From contig JAFTZQ010000017.1 of assembly GCA_017464475.1 (NCBI GenBank), positions 21,853 through 85,852 on the forward strand: a stretch of DNA of 64,000 bases, read 5' to 3'. Positions 8,673-53,310 of the stretch are shown piece after piece (within the stretch, counting starts at the first letter, position 1; each line of letters begins with the position of its first letter). The translations under genes were made by a program, and so were the position numbers. This stretch comes from Paludibacteraceae bacterium. Its GTDB lineage: Bacteria > Bacteroidota > Bacteroidia > Bacteroidales > Paludibacteraceae. The notes below the pieces were generated by a model, which was not told the DNA's origin, did not search any database, and saw nothing but the letters and a program-made list of their open reading frames with translations.

Positions 8673-10667
8673 TTACCAACCCATTCCGCCACCGGGTCCG
8701 CCTCCGGAGTTACCTCCGGAATAGGAAGAGAGCGTAACGGAGGAGCCTCCGGAAACAGTAGCCGGATAATATCCCACTCCGTCAAAGATGCTTGTTCCCG
8801 AGGCTGTTACGCCGGAAACAAGTGTCGGTGTTGATGCGCCGGAAACGACCATTCCGCTTCCTCCGCTACTCGGTGTCTTGAAAGCAAAGGTGGTGCTGCC
8901 GACCGTTAGGGCATACCATGTGTTGGTGGACCAGGAGCCGCTACTGCTTCCGCCGGGACCACCTCCTGAATTACCACCGGGACCGCCTCCTGAATTACCG
9001 CCGCCGGAAGAGGAGCCTGCGGAATAGCAGCTCTGCGTCAGGCTTGCCCCACTCTCGAGTCCGCCGATAGCAACCAGTGTGCCGCCCTGCACATAGAGTT
9101 TATAGCCGCTCTCGGTATTGGCGTCAATCGCCACCTCGGGCGAAGAAGCACCGATAGCATAGACCAGACCGCCCCTGATATAACAGTTGCCGTTTGCGTC
9201 AATGCCGTCGTTGTTGGTAGCACGGGCATAGACCATTCCGCCGCTGATAGTCAGATGACTTGCTGCATTAATGGCATCATCATACGCCGAAACAGCCACT
9301 TCGCCGCCGGTGATGTCCAGTGTCGATTTGGACTCAATGCCTTCGCCGTTTCTGCCGGAGGTGGTAACATAAATCTTGCCGCCGGAGATAGTGATTGCTC
9401 CGGCTACTTTGATACCTTTAGGCGAGGAATAATAGCTGCTGCTGATATTGTCGGTATTGCCGGTATAGTTCGTATTCTCGGTCGAACCGTTGTTGTAATA
9501 CAGCCCTCCGGTGGTGGTAGCTGTGATGAAAGCGCTGTCGCTGACAGCCAGCGCGCCGTCGCACTTGAGTCCCTTTCCTCCTGAGCCGGTAGCCTTCAGG
9601 GTAAGCGTACCGCCACTGATAGCCATATTGGCATCAGCTGAGAGACCAGCCGCCGCTTTCGTTTCGCTATCATCGCTATCCCACTTGCCCGCGCCGGAGG
9701 TGGTGACATCGAGCGTACCGCCGGTAATATACATGTCTCCAGCACTCTTGATACCCTTTGCAGCTGCCGCCGAGGCAGTGATAGCTACCGTTCCGCCGGA
9801 GATATAGATATTACCGGTATCTTCGTCCTCATGGTCGGTGGTAATACCGGTGGAGGTCGTGCCGCCTAAATCGCATTGGATACCGTCATCGCCGATACCG
9901 GATAGGGTAATCGTGCCGCTCTTGATCTCCATGTACTCCTCGCAGTTGATACCGTCGCCTACAGTCGAGGTGATGTTCAACGTCAGATTCTTGACAGAGA
10001 TATACGACGCAGACTTGATACCATGCTTGGTATTGCCGATTACATTAAGCGTACCGTTACCTTGAATCTGCAGCTGTCCTTTGCTATAGACACACGCTTT
10101 CTGCGAGCCGGAGGCGCAGTCGGTCAGAGTGTTTGTTGTACCGTTCTTGGCGGACAACTGAATACGCTTGGAGTTAGTGATGTTAATCGCCGCTCCGTTC
10201 GGGTTAGTGAGCGTCACACCCGCCAGCGAAACCGTGCATTTGTACGAGCCGGAGAGGGAGAGCGAACCGTTGGAGGAAGTGCCGCTGAGTTGGTACGTAA
10301 TCTCATCGTTGCCCACGGCGTCAGTATTGCTTTGGGCAATAGTGACGTGTGCTCCGCTAAAAGTGGGTGTCACATATTGCGCCACATTACCGGCAACTGT
10401 AACCGTTGCCGACGAACTGCTGTATGCTATGCTCACAAGATTGTCCGTCACTGCCGTTTCATCCACCCACATACTGTCTATCTCGCTGAGAGTGAATGTT
10501 TTGCCCATTGCGGTCAGTGTGGTGCCATCCGAGAAAGGCATTACTCCTGCCTGCGAAGCCGGGAAGAGATAGGTCACATTGCCCACCTGCACGTTGAGAG
10601 TCTGTGCGTCAATGTACAAAGGGACAAAGTACAAAGTACAAAGGATTGCTACTAATATCTTTTTCAT
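8673..10667 (-). CDS. Secreted beta-helix protein, Cthe_2159-like carbohydrate-binding domain family (paralogue A)
   Basis: 664 aa with signal peptide MKKILVAILCTLYFVPLYIDAQ. Repeated GDDGIQ / NDGIDANGN / AIDAN beta-helix rungs and Gly/Pro-rich spacers. The C-terminal half is very similar to the 14671..16347 product. Confidence 0.7.
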   Translation of the reverse strand: MKKILVAILCTLYFVPLYIDAQTLNVQVGNVTYLFPASQAGVMPFSDGTTLTAMGKTFTLSEIDSMWVDETAVTDNLVSIAYSSSSATVTVAGNVAQYVTPTFSGAHVTIAQSNTDAVGNDEITYQLSGTSSNGSLSLSGSYKCTVSLAGVTLTNPNGAAINITNSKRIQLSAKNGTTNTLTDCASGSQKACVYSKGQLQIQGNGTLNVIGNTKHGIKSASYISVKNLTLNITSTVGDGINCEEYMEIKSGTITLSGIGDDGIQCDLGGTTSTGITTDHEDEDTGNIYISGGTVAITASAAAAKGIKSAGDMYITGGTLDVTTSGAGKWDSDDSETKAAAGLSADANMAISGGTLTLKATGSGGKGLKCDGALAVSDSAFITATTTGGLYYNNGSTENTNYTGNTDNISSSYYSSPKGIKVAGAITISGGKIYVTTSGRNGEGIESKSTLDITGGEVAVSAYDDAINAASHLTISGGMVYARATNNDGIDANGNCYIRGGLVYAIGASSPEVAIDANTESGYKLYVQGGTLVAIGGLESGASLTQSCYSAGSSSGGGNSGGGPGGNSGGGPGGSSSGSWSTNTWYALTVGSTTFAFKTPSSGGSGMVVSGASTPTLVSGVTASGTSIFDGVGYYPATVSGGSSVTLSSYSGGNSGGGPGGGMGW
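8953..9000. repeat. 24 bp tandem duplication inside paralogue A (encodes GNSGGGPG x2)
   Basis: ccgggaccacctcctgaattacca / ccgggaccgcctcctgaattaccg read directly. Confidence 0.8.
10614..10644. repeat. GTACAAA-type heptamer run inside the signal-peptide coding region of paralogue A
   Basis: aatgtacaaagggacaaagtacaaagtacaaagg, which encodes LCTLYFVPLY. Confidence 0.7.
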
Positions 10668-11629
10668 TGCTGTATTTCTTTACCTGTTATTGAATATGTT
10701 TTGCCGTTGCGCTCAATGAGCAATATCCCGTTGCGGAGGATTTTGGCAGCTTGCAGTTGTCCGGTTGGCGTTTGGTCAATTGCTGACGTTGCTGCAACAT
10801 TCAGAGAAGCCGCATCAGCCACCGACTGCGTGCCAGCCGCTTTGACTGCTTCGCCGGTCGAGCCGGAGGTATTGATATTGATGGTACCGCCGGTCATGGT
10901 GAAGTTGCCGGTGTTCTCCGCAGATGTGTCATTGGCCTCCAAATCCACCTGAATACCGTCGTCACCGAAACCTGAGAGGTTGATGACTCCGCTCTCCATC
11001 AGGAAATACTGGTTGCAGTTGATGGCATCCTTGACCGCCGAATAGACATTGATCGTGCAGTTCTTCATCTCGATGTACTCTCCAGCTTTGATAGCATGGG
11101 CATAGTTGCCATAGACATTGAGCGTACCCTTTCCTTTGAACTGAATATGTCCTTTGCAGTAGAGCGCGCCCTTCCAAGCGTCCGCAGCAGTCGAAGTGCC
11201 GTCTTTGAGCGTGCTTTCCGTACCGCTCTTGGCACTAATCTCAATACGCTTTCCGTTCTGGATATCTATCGCCGGTCCGGTGGGGTTGGTGATAGAGACG
11301 CCGAAGAGTTCGAGCGTGGCTTTGTATGTGCCGGTAAAAGTGAACGAACCGTCCGTTGTAGTGCCATAGAGACCGTATGAGACCTCGTTGATTGTTGCGG
11401 AGGCAGTAGAAGTGATTGCCACATCGGCTCCGCTGATTTCGGCAGTGATATAATCTTTGATATCCGAAGAGACCTCCACCGCAGCCGAAGAGCCGCTATA
11501 GGTTACTTTGACATAACAGGTTGTGTCGGAGGTATAAGTCACCTGCGCTGAAAGGGACAAAGGAGCAATGTACAATGTACAAAGGGTCAATGCACAGAGT
11601 ACAAAGGTTCGCATGAATGTTCTTTTCAT
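10664..11629 (-). CDS. Secreted beta-helix protein, shorter Cthe_2159-like paralogue B
   Basis: 321 aa with signal peptide. GFGDDGIQVD and ITNPTGPAIDIQNGKRIEISAKSGT match paralogues A and C. The C-terminal tail is KILRNGILLIERNGKTYSITGKEIQQ. ATGA-type 4 nt overlap with paralogue A. Confidence 0.65.
   Translation of the reverse strand: MKRTFMRTFVLCALTLCTLYIAPLSLSAQVTYTSDTTCYVKVTYSGSSAAVEVSSDIKDYITAEISGADVAITSTASATINEVSYGLYGTTTDGSFTFTGTYKATLELFGVSITNPTGPAIDIQNGKRIEISAKSGTESTLKDGTSTAADAWKGALYCKGHIQFKGKGTLNVYGNYAHAIKAGEYIEMKNCTINVYSAVKDAINCNQYFLMESGVINLSGFGDDGIQVDLEANDTSAENTGNFTMTGGTININTSGSTGEAVKAAGTQSVADAASLNVAATSAIDQTPTGQLQAAKILRNGILLIERNGKTYSITGKEIQQ
11553..11607. repeat. Degenerate GTACAAA-type heptamer run inside the signal-peptide coding region of paralogue B
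   Basis: gggacaaaggagcaatgtacaatgtacaaagggtcaatgcacagagtacaaagg, which encodes LCALTLCTLYIAPLSLS. Confidence 0.6.
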
Positions 11630-12030
11630 TTTAGTACGATAGTTTGGGTGTTATTACCTTGTTTAATCACATACGCGCCCGCGGGAAGAGTCCGGGCGGT
11701 TTCGTTGAGGTTTCCGAACGTACCGAGGGATGCGCCGTTGAGCGAGAAGACACTCACAGGCATGTCTGCGTCCAATACATTCTCAATGGCCGTTGCGACA
11801 CTGCCGTCTTGGGAGAACTGCATGCTCGCCAGATCGGTCAGCGTAAAAGAGGTGGTGCCATCGGTGTTTGTCACTTGGAGCGATGAGCCGCTGACGACAA
11901 GCGTCATATCCGAAACGCTCAGTTTCGTTGTTGTTCCTCCTGTGCTGGTGAACACCAGATAGGGATAGTCCGCAGCCTGCGCCGTAATCGCACATAACGC
12001 AGCTGCCCAGATAAACAGACTTCGTTTCAT
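11626..12030 (-). CDS. Small secreted protein with a T9SS-type C-terminal sorting domain
   Basis: 134 aa with signal peptide MKRSLFIWAAALCAITAQA. The C-terminus ...VSVFSLNGASLGTFGNLNETARTLPAGAYVIKQGNNTQTIVLK resembles a Por-secretion tail. Confidence 0.55.
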   Translation of the reverse strand: MKRSLFIWAAALCAITAQAADYPYLVFTSTGGTTTKLSVSDMTLVVSGSSLQVTNTDGTTSFTLTDLASMQFSQDGSVATAIENVLDADMPVSVFSLNGASLGTFGNLNETARTLPAGAYVIKQGNNTQTIVLK

Positions 12031-12075
12031 AACATATAATTTGGGGTTTTACAATAAATTTAACCGGTTAACAAA

Positions 12076-13383
12076 TTACCACACTTCAGCACCGAGAGCG
12101 TTATAGGTCTTGCCGTTTTTCTCAATCAGCACTTGACCGTCACGGATAACTTTTGTGCATTGTACATTGTCACTTTTTACATTCTCCACTCCTGTCCCAT
12201 CTGCATTGATAGTGCCGCTACCGCTGAGCGAAGTGTATGTTAAGGTGTAGCCGTTCTTGTTGATTGTACCGTTGTTCACCAGCGCACAGATAGAGGTGTT
12301 GGCATTCAGCACCCATGTAGCACCGCTGTTGACGGTCACATTTGCCGTGTAGCCTGAGTCGTATTTGACAGTACCGGTATAGGTACCGTTAGCCAAAATC
12401 AGGTTCCCCACGGCACCGGATGTGGACCACTGACTGTCTGCCATGACGTACATCAGCACACCGCTTGGAACGGTCACTGTACAGTTGTCCAGCGTGCAGG
12501 TAGCTGTTACGCAGGTAGCTACTTCCAGCAGCGGTGCACTGCTGTCCGTCATCGTCAGAGATGTGCCGGTGATGGTCATTACCGGATTGACACCCGATGC
12601 GTCGCCGCTGCCGGATTGCATCATCAGCAAACCGCGCTCGGACGAACCGCTGGTCATGGTGCAGTTGGTCATGGTGATACTATTGTCTCCCTCGATCACT
12701 GCTATCTCACCCTTGGCAGAAGTGCCGACGAGGTCAGTGGCAGCCATCGTTCCGGTAGAATAAATCACAGCCGATTTGCTGCCGTTGGCGGTAGCTGTAC
12801 CGCCGTTAACGGTCACGGTTCCGCCGCCACGGTCGGTTGCGATAGTGGATGAGGTGGCTTCATTGGTGGTGATGTCCACATTGGAAGCGGTGATGATACC
12901 GCCATAGGTGGCGTGCAAACCACGGCTGACACTATTCGAATTGACAATAGTGATGCCATCTATCTCTACACTCGCTCCGTTGGTGGCAATCACAGCATTG
13001 GCACCTTGTGCCGTTCCGTTTACAGTAACGTTCTTGATTACAATCTTCGCGCCGCTGGCTGCCGTGGTGCTCTGATAATTGGACGAACTGGCGGCACCGG
13101 CATAAATGGAGGAGTTGTTGCCATAGAATGACGAATTGTCTCCCTGAGAACCGTCGCCGGATTTAGTAATCGTACAACCGTTCATCGTCAGTGTACCGCC
13201 CGTACACTGTATCACATTGTAATACTGGGTGGACGATGAGTAGTCACTGGTAATAGTAGCTGTACCGCTGCTGTGGGTGTATGTGGCACCCTGCGGATAA
13301 GTGGGAGTACTGTCTGCGGGCGGTTGCGCCTGCATGTTAAGCGCCGTCAGTACGGCTGCAGCAAAGAAGAAAATCTTTTTCAT
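12076..13383 (-). CDS. Secreted right-handed beta-helix (pectin-lyase-fold-like) protein
   Basis: Start at Met15 (MKKIFFFAAAVLTALNMQAQ; CAT 13381-13383). Repetitive G/T/S/N-rich rungs (ITIVNSN.., VTVNGGTATANG.., TMTNCTMTSG..). C-terminal tail KVIRDGQVLIEKNGKTYNALGAEVW. Confidence 0.55.
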   Translation of the reverse strand: MKKIFFFAAAVLTALNMQAQPPADSTPTYPQGATYTHSSGTATITSDYSSSTQYYNVIQCTGGTLTMNGCTITKSGDGSQGDNSSFYGNNSSIYAGAASSSNYQSTTAASGAKIVIKNVTVNGTAQGANAVIATNGASVEIDGITIVNSNSVSRGLHATYGGIITASNVDITTNEATSSTIATDRGGGTVTVNGGTATANGSKSAVIYSTGTMAATDLVGTSAKGEIAVIEGDNSITMTNCTMTSGSSERGLLMMQSGSGDASGVNPVMTITGTSLTMTDSSAPLLEVATCVTATCTLDNCTVTVPSGVLMYVMADSQWSTSGAVGNLILANGTYTGTVKYDSGYTANVTVNSGATWVLNANTSICALVNNGTINKNGYTLTYTSLSGSGTINADGTGVENVKSDNVQCTKVIRDGQVLIEKNGKTYNALGAEVW

Positions 13384-13422
13384 GTTGTTTGCTTTTAAAT
13401 GTTTTATTTTCAAAACCGGCTG

Positions 13423-13430
13423 CAAAATTA
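13423..13430 (-). promoter_or_regulatory. -7 box TAatTTTG for the minus-strand beta-helix operon
   Basis: caaaatta on the + strand, 39 nt upstream of ATG 13383. Confidence 0.55.
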
Positions 13431-13612: not shown

Positions 13613-13680
13613 CACACTTGTTTATTAACAAAAACACTCATTTTTTTATTAGTAAGAACACTCATTTAAGGGAGACTACT

Positions 13681-14547
13681 ATGCAAACCATACCAGAAAA
13701 TAAACACCCGGTCCTGTTTCAGGACCACATCGACCAACAGGGCGTGGTAGTAGTGGAAGTGGGTTCGATGCCGACCGGTGACCGTCCGTTTCAATCGGAG
13801 AATCTGGTTATCGGCGTGTGTCTGGAAGGTTCGGCGGACTTCATGTACGATTTGCAGCCGCGCCGTTTTGAACCGTATGACGTAGGCGTGGTGCTTCCAA
13901 ACCATATCTTCTCCTACAGTTCCGTCTCTCCGGATTACCGCGCCACGCTCATCATCATCTCTCCGTCCATGTACAAGAGTATTATCCACCGCGAGTCATT
14001 TATCGACTACCAGAAATACCACCACCGCCCGGCACTCACCCTGACGGATGAGCAATTCATCAAAGTAAAAGACATCATCCAAGTGATCCGCTATATCAGC
14101 GAATCAGCCCACCCGCGACGCAAAGAGGCACTGGGCAACCTATTAGACATATTGTTTTACGCGCTAACGCGCTATAGGGGCGAGGAGAAAACGGAGAAAG
14201 TAGCCAATACACGAGGCGAACAGCTATTCCGGAATTTCTACGACTTACTGCTTGTTCATTACAACAAGCAGCACACCGCCATCTGGTACGCGGAGCAACT
14301 CAACCTGACAGCCAAATATTTCTCCATTACCATCCAGCGCGCCACGGGCAAGACCCCCAGCGAGTGGATTTCCGAGATGCTGGTGGAGCAAGCCAAGCGT
14401 CTTCTCTCCAACCGTAGAGACATGACCGTACAGCAGGTTGCATACGAGTTGGGATTCAAAGAGAACGCCACATTCTGCTATTTCTTCAAACAGCAGACCG
14501 GATTGCGCCCTTCGGAGTTCAGGAAGAAAAACGGAACAAATTCTTAA
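13681..14547 (+). CDS. AraC-family transcriptional regulator
   Basis: Start at Met22 of the track ORF (MQTIPENKHP...). C-terminal double HTH (TAIWYAEQLNLTAKYFSITIQRATGKTPSEWI...VQQVAYELGFKENATFCYFFKQQTG). Confidence 0.85.
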   Translation: MQTIPENKHPVLFQDHIDQQGVVVVEVGSMPTGDRPFQSENLVIGVCLEGSADFMYDLQPRRFEPYDVGVVLPNHIFSYSSVSPDYRATLIIISPSMYKSIIHRESFIDYQKYHHRPALTLTDEQFIKVKDIIQVIRYISESAHPRRKEALGNLLDILFYALTRYRGEEKTEKVANTRGEQLFRNFYDLLLVHYNKQHTAIWYAEQLNLTAKYFSITIQRATGKTPSEWISEMLVEQAKRLLSNRRDMTVQQVAYELGFKENATFCYFFKQQTGLRPSEFRKKNGTNS

Positions 14548-14608: not shown

Positions 14609-14616
14609 TACCTTTG
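14609..14616 (+). promoter_or_regulatory. -7 box TAccTTTG for the paralogue C - VTC operon
   Basis: tacctttg, 54 nt upstream of ATG 14671. Confidence 0.55.
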
Positions 14617-14670
14617 CGCGATTTTTGCAAATTGAAAGACAAAAGTAGAAAGTCAAAAGATAAAAGATAT

Positions 14671-16347
14671 ATGAAAAAGATTTTATGGGTAGTGCTGATG
14701 GCTGTCGGGATGGTAGCCTGCACGGAGTACAATGCGCCTACGAGCAACGGGACGAGCAGCAGTTCCGGCTCGGCAAACGACACCACAGACAATGATGTCA
14801 ACAATCAGGTATGGTCCGACACTCTGTATATCTCATGGAGTGGCAGCAAAGCAACCGTGACCGGCGAGATAGACAGTATAACGGTAACCAACAGCAACGG
14901 CTACGTGACCGTCAACTCCGCCGTGACGCGGCTTGTGACGTATATTTTAAGCGGAAACGGGACAGGACAGATTTCCATTTACGGGAGTATCAAAGAGCAG
15001 ATTGTGCTGAACGGGCTGACGCTGACTTGTTCGGACGGTCCGGCGATCAACAACCAATGCCACAAGAAATGCTATGTGGTAGTGAACGGCACGAACAGCC
15101 TGACGGACGGCAGCAGTTATGCATCTTCTTCAGAAGATCGCAAGGCGGCATTCTTCAGCGAGGGACAGTTGATCTTCTCCGGCAGCGGCAGTCTGACGGT
15201 CCAAGGCAATTACAAGCATGCCATCGCCAGCGACGACTATATCCACCTGACGAGCGAAGCAGGTACGTTTGTGCTGAATGCGGCAAGCGACGGTCTGCAC
15301 GCGAACGACGCGATGTATATCAACGGCGGTAGTACCACCATCACAGCCGGCAGCGACGGCGTACAATGCGACTCGACGATCACTATTGACGGCGGTAAAC
15401 TGACGATCAGTGCAGATGGCGACGGTATCCAGAGCGACACAACTAATATTGTCATCAACGGCGGCGAGATCACCATCAGCAAAGCCGGCGACAAAGGTAT
15501 TGTGGCATTTGGAGACATCACCATCACAGACGGCACGATCCGCGTGAACAGCGAATATAAATGTCTCAAAGCGGGCAAGAAAGAGAACAACACCATAGTG
15601 AGCGCCGGCAGTATCACTATCTCCGGCGGCGATATACAAGCGATTTGCAGCGGAACTTCGTCGTCCGGCGGCAGAGGAGGTTGGTTTGCTCCTCCGAGTG
15701 GCGGCGGTCCCGGTGGTGGCGGTCCCGGTGGCGGCGGCTGGGGAGGCGACAGTTCGTCCGACTCCAGCAGTCCCGAAGCGATCGAAGCCAAAGGTACAAT
15801 CACGATCTCCGGCGGCTATGTCTATGCGCAGTCTTCGGACGATGCGATCAATGCAGGTGGCGATTTCACGGTCAGCGGCGGTTGCGTATGTGCTTACTCG
15901 ACCGGCAATGACGGCATGGACGCCAACGGCAATATGTACATCAAAGGCGGTGTGGTCTATGCTATCGGTTCGTCCAGTCCCGAGATGGCGATCGACGCCA
16001 ATTCGGAAGGCGGCAAGAAACTGTATGTCCAAGGCGGTACTATTGTTGCTATCGGCGGTTTGGAGAGCGGTGCAAGTCTGAGCCAGAGTTGCTATTCCTC
16101 CTCATGGAGCAAGAACACATGGTATGCGCTGACCGTTGGGAACGAGGTCTTCGCTTTCAAGACTCCAAGTAGCGGAGGCACAAGTATGGTTGTGTCCGGC
16201 GCTTCCACCCCCACCCTCAAATCGGGCGTCACCGCGAGCGGAACGGCTATTTTCAACGGCATGGGATATTATCCGGCTACGTACAGCGGCGGTTCGTCCG
16301 TCAGTCTGTCTTCCTATAGCGCTTCGTCCGGCGGCGGAAGATGGTAA
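14671..16347 (+). CDS. Lipoprotein, Cthe_2159-like beta-helix carbohydrate-binding family (paralogue C)
   Basis: Start at Met20 (MKKILWVVLMAVGMVAC lipobox). Motifs SDGLHAN, GDGIQSD, NDGMDANGN and a Gly/Pro spacer PPSGGGPGGGGPGGGGWGG. The C-terminal roughly 200 aa is near-collinear with paralogue A. Confidence 0.7.
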   Translation: MKKILWVVLMAVGMVACTEYNAPTSNGTSSSSGSANDTTDNDVNNQVWSDTLYISWSGSKATVTGEIDSITVTNSNGYVTVNSAVTRLVTYILSGNGTGQISIYGSIKEQIVLNGLTLTCSDGPAINNQCHKKCYVVVNGTNSLTDGSSYASSSEDRKAAFFSEGQLIFSGSGSLTVQGNYKHAIASDDYIHLTSEAGTFVLNAASDGLHANDAMYINGGSTTITAGSDGVQCDSTITIDGGKLTISADGDGIQSDTTNIVINGGEITISKAGDKGIVAFGDITITDGTIRVNSEYKCLKAGKKENNTIVSAGSITISGGDIQAICSGTSSSGGRGGWFAPPSGGGPGGGGPGGGGWGGDSSSDSSSPEAIEAKGTITISGGYVYAQSSDDAINAGGDFTVSGGCVCAYSTGNDGMDANGNMYIKGGVVYAIGSSSPEMAIDANSEGGKKLYVQGGTIVAIGGLESGASLSQSCYSSSWSKNTWYALTVGNEVFAFKTPSSGGTSMVVSGASTPTLKSGVTASGTAIFNGMGYYPATYSGGSSVSLSSYSASSGGGRW

Positions 16348-17150
16348 GAGAAATGAGTTCTGTCGAGAATATATTAACTCAGTTTGAGCCGATCAGTCTG
16401 GCTCAGATGGAGAGCGTCAAGCTAATGAACCGCATAGATACCAAATATGCGGTGCCGCTCTCTTTGCTGCCGGCAATACTGGAAGCGGCGATGGCTGATT
16501 ACTACGTCCAGGAGATCGACGGCAAGCGGATTGCCACATACGACACGATGTATTACGACACCGAGTCGCTGGATATGTATATCCGCCACCACGACCGGCA
16601 ATTGGTGCGCCAGAAGATCCGCGTGCGGCAGTATGTGGACAGCAATCTGACCTTTCTGGAGATCAAACGCAAGAACAACAAAGGTCGCACCAAGAAGAAA
16701 CGGATCGTCGTGCCCGATTTTGCTATCACCGCCGAGACGCCGTCTGTGCTCAAACATAAGAGAAGAGCGGACGAAGAGGTGACCGTAGAGAGTTTCATCA
16801 ATACCAAAAGCCGCTACCGCTGGAGCGACATCAGCCCTCATCTATGGACTAAATTTCAGCGTATTACGCTGGTCAACAAAGCCAAGACCGAGCGGCTGAC
16901 CATAGACATGAATCTTGTCTGGGAAAACGTAGTCAGCGGCGAGAGCAAGACTTTTCCTGAGCTGGTGATTATTGAACTGAAAAGGGATGGTAACGTACCC
17001 AGCCGAATGACGGATATCATGCTGAATCTGCGGGTTAAACCGCTGAAGATCAGTAAGTATTGTATCGGCACTGCACTCACTACTCCCGGGCTTAAACGGA
17101 ACCGATTCAAGAAGAAGATACGGAGTATTGTAAAATTGTTAAACTGTTAA
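16341..17150 (+). CDS. VTC-domain protein (polyphosphate-polymerase-type triphosphate tunnel domain)
   Basis: 269 aa; an alternative start at 16353 (MSSVENIL) avoids overlapping the upstream stop. Basic tunnel-like motifs RIDTKY, RQKIRVRQY, FLEIKRKNNKGRTKK and VIIELKRDG. Confidence 0.7.
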   Translation: MVREMSSVENILTQFEPISLAQMESVKLMNRIDTKYAVPLSLLPAILEAAMADYYVQEIDGKRIATYDTMYYDTESLDMYIRHHDRQLVRQKIRVRQYVDSNLTFLEIKRKNNKGRTKKKRIVVPDFAITAETPSVLKHKRRADEEVTVESFINTKSRYRWSDISPHLWTKFQRITLVNKAKTERLTIDMNLVWENVVSGESKTFPELVIIELKRDGNVPSRMTDIMLNLRVKPLKISKYCIGTALTTPGLKRNRFKKKIRSIVKLLNC

Positions 17151-17160
17151 ATTGTTAGAT

Positions 17161-17916
17161 ATGTTATTTCAAGTTGATTTAGCGAACCCCACGTTGGAGT
17201 TTCTGGAAAACGATCCTTCTATCGCAGAGCGTTTCGGCAGCAGCGATAGTATCTCGTATGTGATGCATTCCTTCGCCGACTGGCTGGGCGTAAGCGAGAA
17301 CCTCATTACCATGCCACTCATGTTTCTGTTTAACCTATTGGTTTCATGGATATTGATCTACGGCGTGTATTACCGCTACAGCCGTCGCCGCGACTATTAT
17401 GTGCAGTTTATGCTTTTCTCGTCCGGCATGTTTCTGCTGCTATGGCTGATGCAGATTTTGGACATCCAGACGGGCTTTGTGCTGGGTCTGTTTGCCATCT
17501 TCGGCATGATCCGTTACCGCACGGAGACCGTGCCAATACGCGAAATGAACTATATGTTCCTTATCATCGCCGTTTCAGTCATTAACTCGCTCAGTCTGAA
17601 AGCCGACGGGCTGGCATGGTATCTGTTGCTGGTTGCCAACCTCATTATGATCAGCATGGCTTGGTTCTTTGAGTTATGGAACGGACATAAACGCGAATCC
17701 ACGAAGATCATTTTGTATGAAAAGATAGAGAATATCAAGCCGGAGAACCGCGCTGCGCTCATTGCGGATCTGGAAGAGCGGACGGGTCTCAAAGTAGTAG
17801 ATGTCGAAATAGGACATATTGACTTTCTGCGCGACGTAGCTTATATCAAAATGACTTACCCGCTGGAGAAAGGCAAAGTGCATAACAGTATTGACCAAAT
17901 AACGAAATTCAAATAA
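17161..17916 (+). CDS. DUF4956-family membrane protein
   Basis: The track ORF starts at TTG 17152; the first ATG is at 17161. Four predicted TM helices, then a soluble C-domain (KIILYEKIENIKPENRAALIADLEERTGLKVVDVEIGHIDFLRD). Confidence 0.6.
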   Translation: MLFQVDLANPTLEFLENDPSIAERFGSSDSISYVMHSFADWLGVSENLITMPLMFLFNLLVSWILIYGVYYRYSRRRDYYVQFMLFSSGMFLLLWLMQILDIQTGFVLGLFAIFGMIRYRTETVPIREMNYMFLIIAVSVINSLSLKADGLAWYLLLVANLIMISMAWFFELWNGHKRESTKIILYEKIENIKPENRAALIADLEERTGLKVVDVEIGHIDFLRDVAYIKMTYPLEKGKVHNSIDQITKFK

Positions 17917-17919: not shown

Positions 17920-18792
17920 ATGAAACGATTTCTCCCGATATTACTCCTTATTATGTTTAGCACAGGCGCACGCGCGTGGAACTACAGCGAGACGATGAAC
18001 TCGACCTCTCATAGCGCACAGTTGCGTCTGGGAGCGGATGTACATTGGAGATGGAAGAGCGGTTTGGGTTTATCGCTCGATGAGGACCTGCGGTTCGACA
18101 TGGTTAATTCAACGAGTCTGGAGACTACAGCAGGCACGACCAAGACGCTTTTAGGTCCCGATTTCAACAAGTCGTACACCACCCTCACGCTGAGTTACAA
18201 GCACCCGCAGTTCACTTATCTGAAGGCGGACGCAGGCTACGCACTCAAGCTAATGAAAAAAGATACTACGGCGGTGGAGAAGATCATGCGCCACCGTGTG
18301 TTCTTCGGTCTTACCGGCAGTTACCGGTATGAGAATTGGTCATTCTCACTTCGTGAGCGCTTCATGACGGAGATCCGGATGGGCGATATAGACTACCATG
18401 CCGCAACCGGCTGCTATGAGCACAACCGCGCAGACTGGTATCTGCGGAGCAAGATCGAAGTGGCATACCACGCCGTGAGTAAACCGGTGAAGCCGTATAT
18501 CTGGTGCGAGTTAGTCAACACACTGAATGCCAATGCATTGCAGCAATATTATGCAGGCAATAATCCTGCCAACGGCGGACATCAGTATATTCGCCGCGTG
18601 CGCACTTGCATCGGCGTAGTATGGCGGCTCACCAGACGCAGTTCGCTCGATTTCTACTATCGTTTTAACTACGGCTACGACCGCGATATCAATGTCAAGC
18701 CGAAGAAACAGACGATCATTCTGACTGAGGAACGCAGTTTCCAGCACGCCATCGGCATTGCTTATTCGTTTAACGCCAGCCCGGATAGATAA
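17920..18792 (+). CDS. Predicted outer-membrane beta-barrel protein, function unknown
   Basis: 290 aa with signal peptide MKRFLPILLLIMFSTGARA. Alternating hydrophobic/aromatic strand pattern, and a near-C-terminal AIGIAYSF motif. Confidence 0.45.
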   Translation: MKRFLPILLLIMFSTGARAWNYSETMNSTSHSAQLRLGADVHWRWKSGLGLSLDEDLRFDMVNSTSLETTAGTTKTLLGPDFNKSYTTLTLSYKHPQFTYLKADAGYALKLMKKDTTAVEKIMRHRVFFGLTGSYRYENWSFSLRERFMTEIRMGDIDYHAATGCYEHNRADWYLRSKIEVAYHAVSKPVKPYIWCELVNTLNANALQQYYAGNNPANGGHQYIRRVRTCIGVVWRLTRRSSLDFYYRFNYGYDRDINVKPKKQTIILTEERSFQHAIGIAYSFNASPDR

Positions 18793-18794: not shown

Positions 18795-19223
18795 ATGAAA
18801 AGGACAATATATTTTTTGGTATGCCTGCTGATAAGCAGTGCAGCCATGGCTCAGAGCCTGTTGACGCCTGAGCAATTAGCCAAACGTGAGAAGCGCAAGA
18901 ATCTCACCGTCAAAGAATGGAATACCGATTCCAAGACCAAGACGCGCTGGCTGGACCACGTGAAAGTATATGACGCGCAAGGACGCTGCATCGAGGAGAT
19001 CGAGTATGCCTCGTACGGTCAGCGCAGTCGCGTGACAAGCAAGTATGACGATGTGACCGGCAAGGTAGTGGAAGAGGTTGAATACAACGACCGGAACAAA
19101 CCAGTCCGTATCCGCAAATACGAATGGAACGCGGACGGCACCAAGGCGAAGCAATACAACTATCTGCCGAACGGCAAACTATTCTCCGTCAAAGTATTCG
19201 AATACATCTTCAGCGATAAATAA
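18795..19223 (+). CDS. Small secreted protein, function unknown
   Basis: 142 aa with signal peptide MKRTIYFLVCLLISSAAMAQ. Repeated ..YD..G..VEE(I/V)EY.. segments. Confidence 0.45.
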   Translation: MKRTIYFLVCLLISSAAMAQSLLTPEQLAKREKRKNLTVKEWNTDSKTKTRWLDHVKVYDAQGRCIEEIEYASYGQRSRVTSKYDDVTGKVVEEVEYNDRNKPVRIRKYEWNADGTKAKQYNYLPNGKLFSVKVFEYIFSDK

Positions 19224-19237
19224 ATCGTTTATTACAG

Positions 19238-19267
19238 AAAGAGCCGCACATCGCTGTGCGGCTCTTT
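19238..19267. terminator. Bidirectional rho-independent terminator
   Basis: aaagagccgcaca / tcgc / tgtgcggctcttt: a 13 bp perfect stem with flanking A and T runs, lying between convergent genes. Confidence 0.85.
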
Positions 19268-19295
19268 CCTTTTTCCATTCATTTTCATCCTTCCA

Positions 19296-21452
19296 TTACT
19301 CCTCCTCGCTCTGGGTAGCAGCATAAGCAGCGAGCAGTTTCTCCTGTACGTCTGCCGGAACAAGTTGGTATGAATTGAAGCTCATGGTGAAGGTAGCGCG
19401 ACCTCCGGTGAGAGACGAGAGCGTCGTGGAATAGGAAGCCAGCTCTTTCAGAGGCACTTGCGCTTTGAGGCGGGTGAAGCTCTTCTCTGTCTCCATACCC
19501 ATTACCATACCGCGACGGCCGTTGATGTCGGACATTACATCACCCATGATCTCCGACGGAACAAATACCTCGAGGTCATAAACCGGCTCCAGCACTTTCG
19601 GGTTCGCCTCTTTGAAGGCTTGCGCGAAGGCATTACGTCCGGCGAGACGGAACGAGATTTCGTTGGAGTCAACCGGGTGCATCTTACCGTCATAAATAAT
19701 GACGCGCACGTCGCGGGCGTACGAACCGGTCAGAGGACCTTGCTCCATACGATCCATGATACCCTTTACGATAGCCGGGATGAAGCGTGCGTCGATAGCA
19801 CCACCGACGATGGAGTTGATGATGATCAGCTTACCACCCCACTCCAAGTTGATTTCCTGCTGGTCCTTAACGGAAACTTTGTATTCCTGGTTGCCGAACT
19901 TGTAGGTCTCTTTTACAGGCACGCCTTCCTCATACGGCTCTACGATGAGGTGCACCTCGCCGAACTGACCGGCTCCACCGGACTGTTTCTTATGGCGATA
20001 GTCGGCACGCGCAGCCTTCGTGATCGTCTCGCGGTACGGGATACGCGGTTCGCTGAACTCGATCGGCATCTTGTCGTTGTTCTCCAGACGCCATTTGAGC
20101 GTACGGAGGTGGAACTCACCCTGACCGGAAACGATCATCTGGCGGAGCTCTTTGGATTGCTCAACGATCCATGTCGGATCCTCCTCGTGGTAACGGGTCA
20201 GAAGTGCTGCCAGTTTCTCTGCGTCGGATTCGGTAACCGGCTTGATAGCACGGCGGTAACGCGGCTGCGGATAGTTGATCGGAGCGTACTGCAGGTCGCA
20301 GTCCTTTGCGTTCAGGGTGTTGCCCGTACGAGTGTCTTTCAGTTTCACAGTAGCACCGATATCTCCTGCTGCCAGTTCATCTACCGGCACGCGGATTGAA
20401 CCTGCCACCTGGTAGAGCTGCGAAATACGCTCTTTCGAACCGCGCTCCATATTCTGCAGGTCGTCGCCGTTGTGAACGGTACCTTGCATTACGCGGAAAT
20501 AGTTCACTTCGCCAATATGCGGTTCCACGGAAGTCTTGAAGACGTAGAGGCTGGTAGAAGCAGCAGCGTCCGGGCTGATTTTCTTGCCGTCAACGGTAGG
20601 ATAGCTGAACTGAGAAGGACTCGGAGCCATTCCGTTGAGGAAATCCATCAGACGGCGGACACCCATATCTTTCAGACCCGAGCAGCAGATCACCGGATAC
20701 ATCGACCCGTCTGCATAAACGGATTTGAGTCCCTGCATGATCTCTTCGTCGGTCAGACCTTCACCGAGGAACTTATCCAGCAGCGTCTCATCAGCCTCTG
20801 CAGCCGCTTCGGAGAGTTGCGAACGCATCTCCTCAACACGGTCTGCGTACTCAGCAGGAATATCCTTGAGTTCAGGTGCACCACCTTCTGCCTTCCACAC
20901 CAGCATCTTTCCCTTGAGGACATCAATGACTGCATTGAAGCCTGCTCCGGCGTTCACCGGGAACTGAATCAAAGTACATTTATTGCCAAAGTTCTCTTTC
21001 AGTTGGTTAAACGTGCGATCGAAGTCTGCGTCTTGGTGATCGCATTTGTTGATGACGAAAGCCAGCGGCTTTTTAGCATGCTCCACGAGACGGAAGTTAT
21101 TCTGGGTTCCGACCTCTACTCCGCCGTTAGCGGAGAGAACGATGAGCGCTGAACCGCACATCTGCAGCGCAGCCACGGTACCGCCGCAGAAATCGTCACT
21201 ACCTGCGCAGTCAATGATGTTCAGTTTCTTGCCCTCAAACTCGATGTTACAAACCGTAGAGAAGACCGAATAGCCGTACTCTTTCTCAACCGGGAAATAA
21301 TCGCACACGGTGGATTGCGCTTCAATCGTACCGCGGCGTTTGATCACCCCGCTCTCGAACAACATCGACTCCATAAGGGTCGTTTTACCGGATCCCGAAC
21401 CGCCCAACATAGCGACGTTCTTGATCTCATTTGCTTGATAAACTTTAGCCAT
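19296..21452 (-). CDS. Elongation factor G family GTPase (divergent paralogue)
   Basis: 718 aa. P-loop GGSGSGKT, DCAG, NKCD, and full five-domain EF-G length with a conserved C-terminal region. Confidence 0.8.
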   Translation of the reverse strand: MAKVYQANEIKNVAMLGGSGSGKTTLMESMLFESGVIKRRGTIEAQSTVCDYFPVEKEYGYSVFSTVCNIEFEGKKLNIIDCAGSDDFCGGTVAALQMCGSALIVLSANGGVEVGTQNNFRLVEHAKKPLAFVINKCDHQDADFDRTFNQLKENFGNKCTLIQFPVNAGAGFNAVIDVLKGKMLVWKAEGGAPELKDIPAEYADRVEEMRSQLSEAAAEADETLLDKFLGEGLTDEEIMQGLKSVYADGSMYPVICCSGLKDMGVRRLMDFLNGMAPSPSQFSYPTVDGKKISPDAAASTSLYVFKTSVEPHIGEVNYFRVMQGTVHNGDDLQNMERGSKERISQLYQVAGSIRVPVDELAAGDIGATVKLKDTRTGNTLNAKDCDLQYAPINYPQPRYRRAIKPVTESDAEKLAALLTRYHEEDPTWIVEQSKELRQMIVSGQGEFHLRTLKWRLENNDKMPIEFSEPRIPYRETITKAARADYRHKKQSGGAGQFGEVHLIVEPYEEGVPVKETYKFGNQEYKVSVKDQQEINLEWGGKLIIINSIVGGAIDARFIPAIVKGIMDRMEQGPLTGSYARDVRVIIYDGKMHPVDSNEISFRLAGRNAFAQAFKEANPKVLEPVYDLEVFVPSEIMGDVMSDINGRRGMVMGMETEKSFTRLKAQVPLKELASYSTTLSSLTGGRATFTMSFNSYQLVPADVQEKLLAAYAATQSEEE

Positions 21453-48923: not shown

Positions 48924-50006
48924 ATGCTGTTGCACCTCGCCCTCGCGATAATTATCGTGGGGGCGTGTGTGACGCATTTCTTCGGCATGCAGGGCGAGAT
49001 CCATCTCCGAGCCGACAAAGCTCAAACTCTCACCTACAAATCGCCATACTCTGCCTCTTTCTCCTCCCTTGAGGGGAGGTTGGGAGGGGTTTCCTCCCCC
49101 ACCGTTTCCCTCTTCCTTTGGGATTTTCAGATCGTCTATGCCGAGGATGGCGTGACGCCGGTGGATTACCTCACCGAACTGCGCCTGCTTGATCGTTCCT
49201 CCTCCCCTGAGGGGAGGTCGGGTGGGGTTTCACTCTCTTCTGTAGACGAAGGAACCATTCGGATGAACAAACCGCTCAAATACCACGGTTTCCGCTTCTG
49301 CCAGTCCGATTACGACAGCGACCTGATGGGCGTGGTGCTTACCTATAACTACGACCCGTGGGGAATTGGAATTACCTATACCGGCTATGCCCTCCTGCTG
49401 ATCTCCATGATCGCTTTCTTCTTTCGTCGGAACACCATCTTCCGCGCGAAACTGAAGCAGTCGGTCTTTGCTCAGCGCAGCGGCATATACTCGGCTGCCT
49501 TCATCGCCCTCATTGCGATCTTGGCGCTGGTAATGACCAAAGTGGTGACACCCAAACCGCCTTTGCAGCCGGTACTACAAACGCCGCTCTTGGGAATCCA
49601 TGTATCGGTAATCATGCTGGCGTACACTCTCTTTGCTATCATTGCCATCAACGGCATATTAGGGCTGTGCATGGCGCAGAAACGCGAGATGCTCATGACG
49701 CTCTCTCAAGTCCTCCTCTACCCTGCTATCTTCTGCCTTGCCGCAGGAATCTTCATCGGCGCCGTATGGGCGAACCTCTCTTGGGGACGGTACTGGGGAT
49801 GGGATCCGAAAGAGACATGGGCGCTGATTACGATGATCGTCTATGCCTGCCAACTCCATTGGCCCCTGATCATTGGTAAACTGAAACTCACAGACAACAA
49901 AGCACAAACCATCTACCACATCATTTCTGTGGTAAACTTCCTCTTTGTGCTCTTCACCTATTTCGGAGTAAATCGACTGTTGGGAGGATTACATTCCTAC
50001 GCTTAA
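48924..50006 (+). CDS. Cytochrome c biogenesis protein, CcsA/ResC-like with an N-terminal membrane extension
   Basis: Start MLLHLALAIIIVGACV (alternative ATG at 48903). The tryptophan-rich motif WGRYWGWDPKETW is followed by a conserved His region. Confidence 0.7.
   Translation: MLLHLALAIIIVGACVTHFFGMQGEIHLRADKAQTLTYKSPYSASFSSLEGRLGGVSSPTVSLFLWDFQIVYAEDGVTPVDYLTELRLLDRSSSPEGRSGGVSLSSVDEGTIRMNKPLKYHGFRFCQSDYDSDLMGVVLTYNYDPWGIGITYTGYALLLISMIAFFFRRNTIFRAKLKQSVFAQRSGIYSAAFIALIAILALVMTKVVTPKPPLQPVLQTPLLGIHVSVIMLAYTLFAIIAINGILGLCMAQKREMLMTLSQVLLYPAIFCLAAGIFIGAVWANLSWGRYWGWDPKETWALITMIVYACQLHWPLIIGKLKLTDNKAQTIYHIISVVNFLFVLFTYFGVNRLLGGLHSYA
49061..49095 (+). repeat. GC-rich palindromic element, in-frame in the ccsA-like gene (copy 1)
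   Basis: ctcctcccttgaggggaggttgggaggggtttcct encodes SSLEGRLGGVSS. Confidence 0.75.
49197..49233 (+). repeat. GC-rich palindromic element, in-frame in the ccsA-like gene (copy 2)
   Basis: The 17 bp perfect palindrome cctcccctgaggggagg (49201-49217) is followed by tcgggtggggttt. Encodes SSPEGRSGGVS. Confidence 0.8.
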
Positions 50007-50663
50007 TACAATCCAAGTAGCGATTGTATGAGAAGCGGCACCGAGCACGATGAACACATGCCATATTGCATGATAGTAGTCGTGCTCTTCGTCTTTATTG
50101 AAGAAATACGAACCGATGGTGTAGAATACCCCTTCGCCTATGATCCACCAGAACGCGCTATGCGGCATGCCTTTCCACATCGGCACTAAGATCAGCAGCG
50201 CTACCCACCCCATGCTCAGATAGAGCGCCAGAGACAGCTTGGGGTGTTTGCCGAGCGCAATGATCTTTCCGATCATGCCGGCGATCACGCATGCCCATAG
50301 AAAAATAAACAGCGCCCATCCCATCCATCCGCCTACAACGGAGAGACAGATCAGCGAGTACGAACCGGCTATCATGGCGTAGATAGCAATGTGGTCAAAT
50401 ACCCGCAGCCGGGCTTTCACCTTCGGCTCTACTACAGCGTGATACGCAGTGGACGAACCGAACATCACCAGCATTCCTATTAGGAACAACCCCGTCCCCA
50501 ATACCTGATATGCCGGTGCCCCCTGCTGACTTCGTATCGCCAGCCTCATCATCGGCGCAGAGATACCTGCCGTCACCATCAGCGGCAAAAGATGAGTGAT
50601 AGTATTCCACCTCTCCTCACTTGATAATTTCCCTAAATACTCCTTCATCTTTCGTCCTTCCAT
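49989..50663 (-). CDS. Hemolysin III / PAQR-family membrane protein
   Basis: About 224 aa, 7 TM helices. ...EERWNTITH..., ...STAYHAV..., ...HAIWHVFIVLGAASH. The start is ambiguous (50663 or 50648). Confidence 0.8.
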   Translation of the reverse strand: MEGRKMKEYLGKLSSEERWNTITHLLPLMVTAGISAPMMRLAIRSQQGAPAYQVLGTGLFLIGMLVMFGSSTAYHAVVEPKVKARLRVFDHIAIYAMIAGSYSLICLSVVGGWMGWALFIFLWACVIAGMIGKIIALGKHPKLSLALYLSMGWVALLILVPMWKGMPHSAFWWIIGEGVFYTIGSYFFNKDEEHDYYHAIWHVFIVLGAASHTIATWIVLSVGM

Positions 50664-52177
50664 CACGCACTATGTGTCTTCCTCGTTACGATTGACCGCA
50701 TCGTCAGGAAGAAATACTTGATATCGGTTCGCACCGGGTGTTCCAGATATTCCGTCAGGTACTTGTCCTCACTCGCGAATAACTCCTCGAAGGTATCAGG
50801 ATGGTCGATATAGAACGGAGGGATCAAACCGGGCTTGCTTTTCGTTCGTTTGTCTTGCAGCCATTCCGGATAACTCTCAAACATCGTCCGGCTCAGCGGA
50901 CGAACACCTACTAACTTCACATCACCTTTAAACCAATTGATCAGCATAGGAAGCTCGTCCAGCCAGTACTTCCGCATGAATTTTCCCCAAGTGGTGATCC
51001 GCCAGTCGTCATTGCTCTTGTCGGCAATATCCATTCCTCCGCGGGCGTCAAAGACATATTTCTGGATGTACTCGGCATACGGGTGCATCGTGCGCATCTT
51101 GTAGAAATAACGGATCTCCTTGTTCTTGCATACGCGCGCCAATTTGATCAGCGGACCATAGACCTTGATCTGCTCCTGAGGATACGGCTGCGATTTACGG
51201 TGCGCAAAGACATATTCGATGTGCCCCATTGGCACAACGTCGTCCACCTCAAACCCGCAATAATAGAGCCGTCCTAATACTTCGGTCTTGCTCAGCATTC
51301 GCTTTCGTCCCTTGGTGATGTCGTAATAAAGGCGGCTGGTGAGCATGAGCCGCGGCCATACGCGTTTCTGGAAGAAATAAAGCGTGTAGATACACCAGTT
51401 AAGTCCACGCGGATATTTGGCTAAGATCTTGCCTTTGATATATTCCTGCGGACGATAGCAACATACATAATGCCCACCGTCCGGCAGTTTCTGGTTCACC
51501 ATGCAGAACCGTTTGTTGATCCCCCGCATGTCGTTCAGAAGCGTCAGATCAACCAGCGTCTCGTATTGATAATCAGGTATTTGCAGATAAGCAAACCGAT
51601 TTCGGTCGCATACCACTTTGGTTAACGTGGAATCCAGCCTTGCTTTCTTGCGCAGCATATAGTAATCCGCCTCAGTGGTGACAGAGAGGATCGATTGATG
51701 AATGGATTGAATGGATTCCTTGCGCCTTTTCTCGTCCGGATGGGTCGCATGAGCATTCTCGCGCTGCTCTATCTGCATCACCGGCACGGTCATGTTGGTC
51801 GCGTATTTCCAGTAATGTTCCATCAGTACCACAACCGTCTCCAGCGCACCTACCAGCAGGATCGTCCACATCGCTACCTTCGGAGACAGATTATAGTGCA
51901 TCTGCGGCAATATCCACCAGCATAAACCGATCAGTATTCCTGCATCGGCTACCAGCGACACCATGGATTGCCAGAACCATGCCTCTTTGTACGAACGGTA
52001 TAGTTGTACGGCAAATCCCACGATGATCCACAGCGCAGCTAAGACACCGAATAGTGCCCAATAATGCACGATCTCGCTCTTATTGGCTACCCATCGCCAT
52101 AACATACATAGCGCCACCGCAATGACCCACACCAGCAGGTCTGCCACGATTCGTTTTCCCCAACCTTCGCGTATCAT
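50663..52177 (-). CDS. Polyprenyl-phosphate glycosyl-phosphotransferase (bacterial sugar transferase family) with a large N-terminal region
   Basis: 504 aa. YFYKMRTM and LDELPMLINWFKGDVKLVGVRP motifs, and N-terminal TM helices. Confidence 0.75.
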   Translation of the reverse strand: MIREGWGKRIVADLLVWVIAVALCMLWRWVANKSEIVHYWALFGVLAALWIIVGFAVQLYRSYKEAWFWQSMVSLVADAGILIGLCWWILPQMHYNLSPKVAMWTILLVGALETVVVLMEHYWKYATNMTVPVMQIEQRENAHATHPDEKRRKESIQSIHQSILSVTTEADYYMLRKKARLDSTLTKVVCDRNRFAYLQIPDYQYETLVDLTLLNDMRGINKRFCMVNQKLPDGGHYVCCYRPQEYIKGKILAKYPRGLNWCIYTLYFFQKRVWPRLMLTSRLYYDITKGRKRMLSKTEVLGRLYYCGFEVDDVVPMGHIEYVFAHRKSQPYPQEQIKVYGPLIKLARVCKNKEIRYFYKMRTMHPYAEYIQKYVFDARGGMDIADKSNDDWRITTWGKFMRKYWLDELPMLINWFKGDVKLVGVRPLSRTMFESYPEWLQDKRTKSKPGLIPPFYIDHPDTFEELFASEDKYLTEYLEHPVRTDIKYFFLTMRSIVTRKTHSA

Positions 52178-52180
52178 GAT

Positions 52181-53302: not shown

Positions 53303-53310
53303 AGTCCTGT

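Follow-up and report, generated by a model that had tools for sequence, protein, structure and literature searches.

A VTC-family tunnel enzyme and its DUF4956 membrane partner in a Paludibacteraceae operon: a predicted polyphosphate-synthesising module at the bacterial membrane

Polyphosphate in bacteria has been ascribed to PPK1 and PPK2, with VTC regarded as a polymerase that arose in eukaryotes (PMC10657179); a 2026 preprint on Bacillus cereus described PPK-independent synthesis and extracellular polyphosphate without a candidate enzyme (PMC13484657). In yeast Vtc4 the triphosphate is contacted by K200, R264, R266, K281, R361, K458, S457 and Y359, and Mn by E426, with K458 being the sole ligand that is changed (to Ile or Leu) in the inactive Vtc2 and Vtc3 (10.1101/2023.01.27.525886). 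Here we describe an operon in a 64-kb stretch of DNA (the window; contig JAFTZQ010000017.1) from a diderm rumen Bacteroidales of the Paludibacteraceae, in which the gene for a 269-aa enzyme directly precedes the gene for a DUF4956 membrane protein. The enzyme shares Pfam family PF09359 and an eight-stranded tunnel fold with VTC of yeast and protists (Vtc4; 3G3Q/3G3R, 7YTJ, 8I6V), as well as the triphosphate ligands, the Mn-binding Glu, the Lys458 equivalent, the basic residues on the exit side and the tie to a polytopic membrane protein. The window enzyme differs in that it lacks both an SPX domain and a fused C-terminal domain with three transmembrane (TM) helices (DUF202-type), and in that Vtc1/2/3/5-like subunits are absent; instead it is paired with a distinct 5-TM protein, unrelated and ending in an ACT-like tail, and the membrane targeted would be the inner one of a bacterium, beyond which Bacteroidales add an outer-membrane (OM) barrel.

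In bacteria, the same two core families are adjacent, with secreted companions, among the accessory genes of pel loci (Streptococcus intermedius SIR_1592-1594; Clostridium perfringens NELoc-2). These sets, composed of cotH, a polyphosphate polymerase gene and DUF4956 (in some cases also DUF4832), are contiguous with Gram-positive pel operons (10.1101/768473; PMC2879425). In S. intermedius, Pel-dependent aggregation falls when the DUF4956-like and CotH genes are deleted, and the authors suggested a role in phosphate metabolism; furthermore, the CotH homologue of another locus was predicted to be secreted, and the streptococcal DUF4956 homologue was described as combining an MgtC-type membrane domain with an ACT domain (PMC12345266). 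By contrast, the window has a DUF2490 barrel, Cthe_2159 proteins and an AraC-family regulator, and its operon contains no CotH, polysaccharide synthase, DUF4832 or pel genes. Annotations exist for both genes and the pel-locus literature mentions them together, so that the pairing is not new; an explicit synthase-translocase proposal for the bacterial VTC-DUF4956 pair was not found in the literature searched. The pair can be described as an uncharacterised VTC-type module of bacteria that is split into two proteins, has no SPX domain and uses a membrane subunit unrelated to that of yeast. We predict, with a probability of roughly 45%, that the operon is a membrane-associated VTC-type module that synthesises polyphosphate.

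The tunnel enzyme

The two core genes are:

16341-17150, + strand: VTC-family triphosphate tunnel enzyme, 269 aa (Pfam VTC; alternative start at 16353)
17152-17916, + strand: DUF4956 inner-membrane protein, 254 aa (Pfam DUF4956; alternative ATG at 17161)

An earlier note on this DNA, made from the letters alone, had placed a VTC catalytic domain and an adjacent DUF4956 protein at 16341-17916 and proposed that they form a split analogue of the eukaryotic synthase/translocase. Both positions and both identities are borne out: the 269-aa protein matches Pfam VTC PF09359 with an E-value of 5.3e-32 (111.7 bits, cut-off 23) over residues 30-246, which covers positions 1-233 of the 235 in the profile, and its neighbour matches DUF4956 PF16316 with 159.2 bits (E 1e-46) over profile positions 1-169 of 169, so that both scores are far above chance. 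The VTC domain, which begins at residue 30 of 269, was the sole domain found in the enzyme, with no SPX domain detected and no CYTH match reported in the Pfam search. The protein has neither a signal peptide nor a TM segment and is cytoplasmic, carries a net charge of +18 and ends in a basic helix; at NCBI it is named “polyphosphate polymerase domain-containing protein.” The four basic motifs singled out in the earlier note were located at residues 31 (RIDTKY), 90 (RQKIRVRQY), 105 (FLEIKRK) and 210 (IIELKRDG).

A phmmer search of the PDB with the single VTC sequence gave no match to Vtc4. Relatives were gathered as 3,944 clusters at 50% identity (E up to 1e-3), and a profile of 128 homologues with 38-49% identity to the window protein found yeast Vtc2 (E 5.7e-5) and Vtc4 (E 8.8e-5) in the PDB. 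An AlphaFold2 (AF2) model built on the 128-sequence alignment reached a pLDDT of 94.3 and a pTM of 0.90, and when it was compared with the PDB by Foldseek the first 13 matches were all Vtc4, Vtc3 or Vtc2 (E 1.6e-12 to 1.9e-10, TM-scores of about 0.55-0.61), followed by E. coli YgiF (7e-9) and other CYTH enzymes (1e-7 to 1e-5). Since Vtc4, Vtc3 and Vtc2 rank first, the protein belongs with the VTC polymerases within the tunnel superfamily, and as judged from the modelled fold it is a true VTC-family triphosphate tunnel enzyme.

The ligands of Vtc4 were mapped onto the window protein through HMMER alignments (Y359 through the alignment with Vtc2). K200, R264, R266, K281 and R361 correspond to K35, R94, R96, K109 and R174, while E426, S457 and K458 correspond to E212, S238 and K239, each of them invariant in 128/128 homologues. 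Homologues at seven further loci (Deinococcus, Aminobacter, Nitratireductor, Shinella, Nonomuraea and Streptomyces) retain the same ligands, except that in Streptomyces K35 is replaced by Ser and S238 by Thr. The basic residues on the exit side of Vtc4 (R196, K294, R373 and K428) are likewise represented by R31, K119, R185 and K214, all of which are invariant. Conservation of the catalytic Lys, Arg and Glu residues was the point on which the earlier note had wished its idea to be judged, with loss of the tunnel residues speaking against it; because all of the Vtc4 ligands other than Y359 (here F172) are invariant, no such loss is seen. The catalytic half of the VTC-analogue interpretation is well supported in silico, and the 269-aa protein is predicted to be the catalytic subunit of a polyphosphate polymerase.

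The DUF4956 protein and the conservation of the pair

For the DUF4956 protein an AF2 model built with 98 homologues has a pLDDT of 78.7 and shows five predicted membrane helices (53-77, 80-103, 107-123, 129-150 and 155-176), after which the chain ends in a soluble beta-alpha-beta-beta tail at 182-237. The protein had earlier been described as four TM helices with a soluble tail, of which the tail stands and the number of helices is corrected to five. The conserved core reads G108..G112-L-F-x-I-F..R121-Y-R123-T-E..R130-E-M-x-Y-x-F, and Y73, G112, F114, R123, Y134 and F136 are kept across phyla. Two loops are rich in Arg (RYSRRRD and RYRTE..RE) and the N-terminus is acidic, with one basic and nine acidic residues, a pattern that by the positive-inside rule argues for an N-out/C-in topology, in which the Arg-rich loops and the tail would lie in the cytoplasm. 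For the tail, Foldseek repeatedly gave weak matches to ACT domains over ~60 residues, at sub-threshold E-values of 0.14-0.5.

The pair was followed through 160 Bacteroidales loci, half of them from genomes (80 loci, 71-100% DUF4956 identity) and half from metagenomes (80 loci, 44-84% VTC identity); the genome scan, which used a single-protein query, covered close Paludibacteraceae relatives only, so that the breadth of the sample comes from the metagenome scan and a tblastn search of plasmids. DUF4956 directly follows VTC in 138 of the 139 Bacteroidales loci with enough downstream sequence, and the exception (L122) is an artefact of open reading frame (ORF) picking, because DUF4956 is present at 9394-10134 right after VTC. 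Natural fusions of the two proteins were found neither among the 160 loci nor among the homologues listed. DUF2490 comes next after DUF4956 in 120/129 Bacteroidales loci, a Cthe_2159 family protein lies near the module in 99/157, and a homologue of the 142-aa exported protein that ends the window's operon occurs in 97/160, often directly upstream of VTC and in other cases downstream of the barrel, so that this protein is a frequent accessory of the module. CotH stands in place of the window-type neighbours in some Bacteroidales loci. Bacteroides isolates have the order VTC-DUF4956-DUF2490-Cthe_2159-LytS-LytTR, and Parabacteroides has the same core, including Cthe_2159, plus an EEP-family phosphatase or nuclease; in B. 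thetaiotaomicron, BT3498-99 carry the annotations DUF4956 and DUF2490. An AraC-family regulator is present in 30 loci, and its position is taken by LytS/LytTR or OmpR-type systems in other lineages. Where the window has AraC, Bacteroides and Parabacteroides instead have genes for a LytS-type histidine kinase and a LytTR regulator after the core, often with an Exo_endo_phos (EEP) protein, as for example in L161 (13633-15679), L172 (9387-12127) and L111 (2115-2864).

Beyond the phylum, a tblastn search of plasmid and megaplasmid sequences returned 16 records. Seven loci from Deinococcota, Alphaproteobacteria and Actinomycetota were inspected; VTC and DUF4956 are neighbours in every one of them, the two genes often overlap, and five of the loci have the reverse order:

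Deinococcus: CotH-VTC-DUF4956
Deinococcus QL22: VTC-DUF4956 beside an acid phosphatase and phnDCEE
Aminobacter and Shinella: DUF4956-VTC-phytase-like
Nitratireductor: DUF4956-VTC-PiT phosphate transporter-phytase-like
Nonomuraea and Streptomyces: DUF4956-VTC

The pair was thus found in four phyla here, with a fifth known from the literature. Since the adjacency survives inversion of the order across phyla, it speaks for a direct functional, and probably physical, partnership, and the phosphate genes that recur beside the pair point to phosphate chemistry. DUF4956 is an obligate partner of the VTC enzyme, and this partnership is very well supported.

What the module may make, and where

In the predicted mechanism the 269-aa cytoplasmic protein acts as a Vtc4-type triphosphate tunnel enzyme, a role to which its fold and residues both point. 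It would, with fair likelihood, bind ATP-Mn2+ through the conserved Lys, Arg and Glu residues and transfer the gamma-phosphate to a growing chain that leaves by the basic exit of the tunnel. That it would do so in obligate partnership with the 5-TM DUF4956 protein is highly probable, the functional link being shown by synteny. The Arg-rich loops (RRRD, RYRTE..RE) and the ACT-like domain of DUF4956 would face the enzyme, and the protein may tentatively be seen as both anchor and regulator of the enzyme and, in a fuller version, also as an inner-membrane conduit for the chain; that the ACT-like tail has the regulatory role of the yeast SPX domains is speculation. In Bacteroidales the polyanion could then cross the outer membrane by way of the DUF2490 barrel and reach Cthe_2159 proteins at the surface, a step that we regard as rather unlikely. 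DUF2490 has been listed as a putative porin without known function (TC 1.B.81; PMC4827864), members of the family also match OMP_b-brl and Porin_4, and its profile gave weak matches to porins and OmpG in the PDB, which makes the barrel a candidate for outer-membrane passage.

The phosphate genes (PiT, phytase-like, acid phosphatase and phn), CotH, the barrel and Cthe_2159 near the pair speak for a polyphosphate module at the envelope, as does the lowered aggregation of the S. intermedius mutants. At its most elaborate, the operon would be a trans-envelope secretion line, in which the polymerase sits on an oligomeric DUF4956 pore, the product exits through DUF2490 and is held as Ca/Mg-polyphosphate by Cthe_2159 proteins, with secreted CotH kinases or phytase-like enzymes as users in other phyla; we consider this doubtful. 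If real, such a system would be a third class of polyphosphate synthase in bacteria, independent of PPK, and would supply extracellular polyphosphate as its dedicated task. Such a line would resemble the synthase-dependent secretion of alginate, cellulose, poly-N-acetylglucosamine (PNAG) and Pel, where a polymerase at the cytoplasmic face, an inner-membrane partner, an OM barrel and exported polymer-binding proteins are likewise combined, but an inorganic polymer would be made here, glycosyltransferase, c-di-GMP receptor and TPR scaffold are all absent, and the barrel family, DUF2490, is one without an established function.

Several observations weigh against a polyphosphate-synthesising and exporting module. 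Tyr359 of Vtc4, which touches the triphosphate with its hydroxyl, is replaced by F172 in the window enzyme (the column has Phe in 108/128 and Tyr in 20/128, while beyond the Bacteroidales it has Tyr in Alphaproteobacteria and Actinomycetota and Cys in Deinococcus), and in yeast the mutation of Y359 to Phe lowers polyphosphate (10.1101/2023.01.27.525886). Where Vtc4 has Thr198, the window enzyme has D33 (codon 16437-16439), with Asp in 125/128 and Asp or Glu in 127/128; this residue sits in the ancestral ExExK strand, and its carboxylate could form a hydrolase-type second metal site and thereby alter the chemistry. Together, F172 and D33 leave room for altered chemistry in the window enzyme. 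Regarding the membrane partner, Foldseek found no significant match of the DUF4956 model in the PDB (best E 0.14), and none to the VTC membrane chains (7YTJ, 8I6V, 9UMG) or to solved channels. The conserved charges of DUF4956 lie at the predicted membrane edge and not inside the helices, and the protein is without recognisable channel features. A measured activity for any bacterial VTC-domain protein was not found in the searched literature. Bacteria tolerate cytoplasmic polyphosphate, and export is therefore not required.

Since DUF4956 resembles neither the VTC membrane domain nor a solved channel, its designation as a translocase is drawn from context only, namely the obligate pairing with a polytopic protein, the exported neighbours and the nearly constant OM barrel, and DUF4956 is at most an analogue, not a homologue, of the translocation domain of yeast VTC. 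Of the split VTC analogue proposed in the earlier note, the enzyme family, the residues and the link to a membrane partner are upheld, while the likeness of DUF4956 to the VTC membrane domain is not, which leaves coupled synthesis and export as a plausible, partly supported idea.

MgtC has been linked to phosphate and ATP homeostasis. The alternative that survives best, although we judge it unlikely, is that the enzyme makes polyphosphate or short oligophosphates at the cytoplasmic face only, with DUF4956 as an MgtC-like anchor and sensor that has an ACT-type, ligand-binding tail instead of a channel, and the exported neighbours merely co-regulated. The C-terminal domain of DUF4956 gives only ACT-like, sub-threshold matches, and the protein may resemble MgtC/SapB in the succession of a small polytopic membrane domain and a cytoplasmic ACT-like domain, in line with the description of the S. 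intermedius homologue (PMC12345266); the position of the conserved Arg residues in loops outside the membrane core and the differences in accessory genes among lineages also agree with an anchor. However, similarity to MgtC/SapB was not detected at the level of sequence profiles, as 0/98 DUF4956 proteins matched Pfam MgtC (PF02308) at E-values up to 10 and hhalign against E. coli YhiD gave a probability of 0.1% (with a single-sequence template, a weak test), and the conserved motifs differ. Moreover, the neighbours are overwhelmingly exported or located in the outer membrane, with the barrel at its almost constant position, which is hard to reconcile with a product confined to the cytoplasm.

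Most bacterial TTM/CYTH proteins are hydrolases or cyclases (tripolyphosphatases, NTPases, adenylate cyclases). Accordingly, the tunnel enzyme might be a hydrolase or cyclase and not a polymerase, so that the module would sense or degrade phosphoanhydrides at the membrane, which seems improbable. The family has the superfamily fold and the RxR, ExK and SK motifs in common with the YgiF tripolyphosphatase, CyaB-type cyclases and NeuTTM, and YgiF is the next-best structural match after the Vtc chains; those enzymes are soluble, stand-alone or CHAD-fused and have an ExExK / ExE acidic patch, whereas the window family has RxDxK / ExK and a membrane partner. In hydrolytic tunnel enzymes a Glu patch (E2/E4/E90/E171 in AtTTM3, E4/E6/E162 in YgiF), which is basic in Vtc4, binds a second, water-activating metal, and AtTTM3 hydrolyses tripolyphosphate only, although it has the tunnel-centre residues of Vtc4 (Martinez et al., PMC4641920). 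In a motif-level alignment with the YgiF sequence the bacterial VTC family reads R31-x-D33-x-K35 and E212-x-K214, such that two of the three Glu positions of YgiF are basic (R31 and K214), as in Vtc4, and D33 retains one carboxylate; as the C-terminal S-K helix was the only part that hhalign could align between the VTC profile and E. coli YgiF, the comparison of the acidic patch is one of motif equivalence only. The retained carboxylate and the replacement of Y359 by Phe leave hydrolysis conceivable, but the equivalent of K458, which is critical in Vtc4 and dispensable in AtTTM3 (PMC4641920), is invariant, Pfam places the protein in VTC and not in CYTH, and the Foldseek E-values favour Vtc4, Vtc3 and Vtc2 by 3 to 5 orders of magnitude.

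Secreted CotH kinases lack ATP outside the cell. That the pair supplies (poly)phosphate to, or attaches it to, a Pel-like exopolysaccharide, a lipid carrier or secreted CotH kinase substrates, without free polymer, would fit the CotH genes adjoining it in Deinococcus and some Bacteroidales, the contiguity with Gram-positive pel operons (10.1101/768473), the reduced Pel and aggregation of DUF4956-like and CotH gene mutants (PMC12345266) and the polysaccharide-binding-type beta-helix proteins of the window's operon, but this is the least probable of the alternatives, given that the operon encodes neither CotH nor a polysaccharide synthase, that beside the pair Alphaproteobacteria and Deinococcus QL22 have genes for phosphate uptake and phosphatases and not for polymers, and that no acceptor-binding domain is evident in the VTC or DUF4956 protein.

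If the VTC-DUF4956 module does synthesise polyphosphate, it would represent a new class of polyphosphate synthase in bacteria, spread over the 3,944 clusters of VTC relatives. The eukaryotic VTC enzyme might then be related to it or descend from it, and three large families (DUF4956, DUF2490 and, partly, Cthe_2159) would gain a function. In gut, rumen and oral bacteria an active module would also give polyphosphate a route to the envelope, and outside cells the polymer is known to influence biofilms and the host's cells. Testing would be easy and cheap, given a small, soluble enzyme and genetically tractable homologues in Bacteroides.

The operon and the rest of the window

The remaining features of the locus are:

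13618-14547, + strand: AraC-family regulator (HTH_18, HTH_AraC and AraC_binding domains), directly upstream of the operon
14671-16347 (ATG at 14671), + strand: Cthe_2159-type right-handed beta-helix lipoprotein, operon gene 1 (Pfam Cthe_2159, E 8.2e-56)
17920-18792, + strand: DUF2490 outer-membrane beta-barrel, 290 aa, with signal peptide (Pfam DUF2490, E 4.5e-13)
18795-19223, + strand: small exported repeat protein, 142 aa, with signal peptide (from its translation; weak DUF2963 match)
19237-19268, + strand: terminator-like hairpin closing the operon (14-bp stem, 8 GC pairs, T-run)
8673-13425, - strand: divergent cluster of four exported proteins (from Pfam and NCBIfam searches and translations)

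Downstream of the AraC-type regulator, which is the probable local regulator, five + strand ORFs lie head to tail as one tight operon, in the order Cthe_2159-type lipoprotein, VTC, DUF4956, DUF2490 barrel and 142-aa exported protein, with junctions of -7, +1, +3 and +2 nt. Right after the last gene follows the only strong + strand terminator hairpin, and these junctions together with the hairpin confirm the earlier claim that the pair shares an operon with exported proteins and an OM barrel. The first 7 nt of VTC lie within the end of the upstream gene, and an NCBI protein identical to the window VTC (P0003) begins 4 codons later. The gap between VTC and DUF4956 had been given as ten nt, which holds if DUF4956 starts at ATG 17161; with the TTG start at 17152 it is 1 nt. 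Among the genome loci, the one from the metagenome-assembled genome RUG11067 (L001) is 100% identical.

The first protein of the operon matches the crystal structure of Cthe_2159 in the PDB (4PEU, E 1.5e-13), a beta-helix of the polysaccharide-lyase-like type, and has a lipobox (...MVAC) and Gly-rich linkers. The divergent cluster comprises a 449-aa protein without a Pfam match, a 134-aa protein with a C-terminal sorting domain of the type IX secretion system (T9SS) and two Cthe_2159 beta-helix proteins of 321 and 664 aa. Homologues of the cluster are present in many related loci, and its exported proteins are likely surface partners of the module, in a looser association. The 664-aa and 577-aa Cthe_2159 paralogues have in common Gly-rich GGGPGG linkers and a C-terminal module of ~90 aa.

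NCBIfam models matched none of the VTC, DUF4956, DUF2490 and Cthe_2159 proteins of the operon. PPK-family domains were not among the Pfam or NCBIfam matches of the operon proteins, and neither PPK nor phosphate genes were among the ten largest other ORFs of the window. A role in anti-phage defence was considered and rejected, as the five operon proteins had 0 PADLOC matches, and so was a riboswitch or leader RNA, because no Rfam family matched at gathering score anywhere in the 64-kb window.

Long ORFs antisense to the Cthe_2159 gene occur within 14614-16347 (one of 300 aa at 15130-16032 on the - strand and one of 188 aa), and are most likely artefacts of a Gly/Ser/Thr-rich, GC-rich coding sequence and not genes. 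The hairpin at 19237-19268 lies between the operon and a convergent gene for a 718-aa EF-G-like protein (19296-21452); GC-rich and with T-runs, it is probably a bidirectional terminator. Further away, the region 50000-64000 has a lower GC content (0.41-0.50), a strongly negative GC skew and every gene on the - strand. Among its products are a Bac_transf sugar transferase (50663-52177) and a HipA-like kinase (54946-56433), and the region is probably a capsule or exopolysaccharide locus with a toxin-antitoxin gene.

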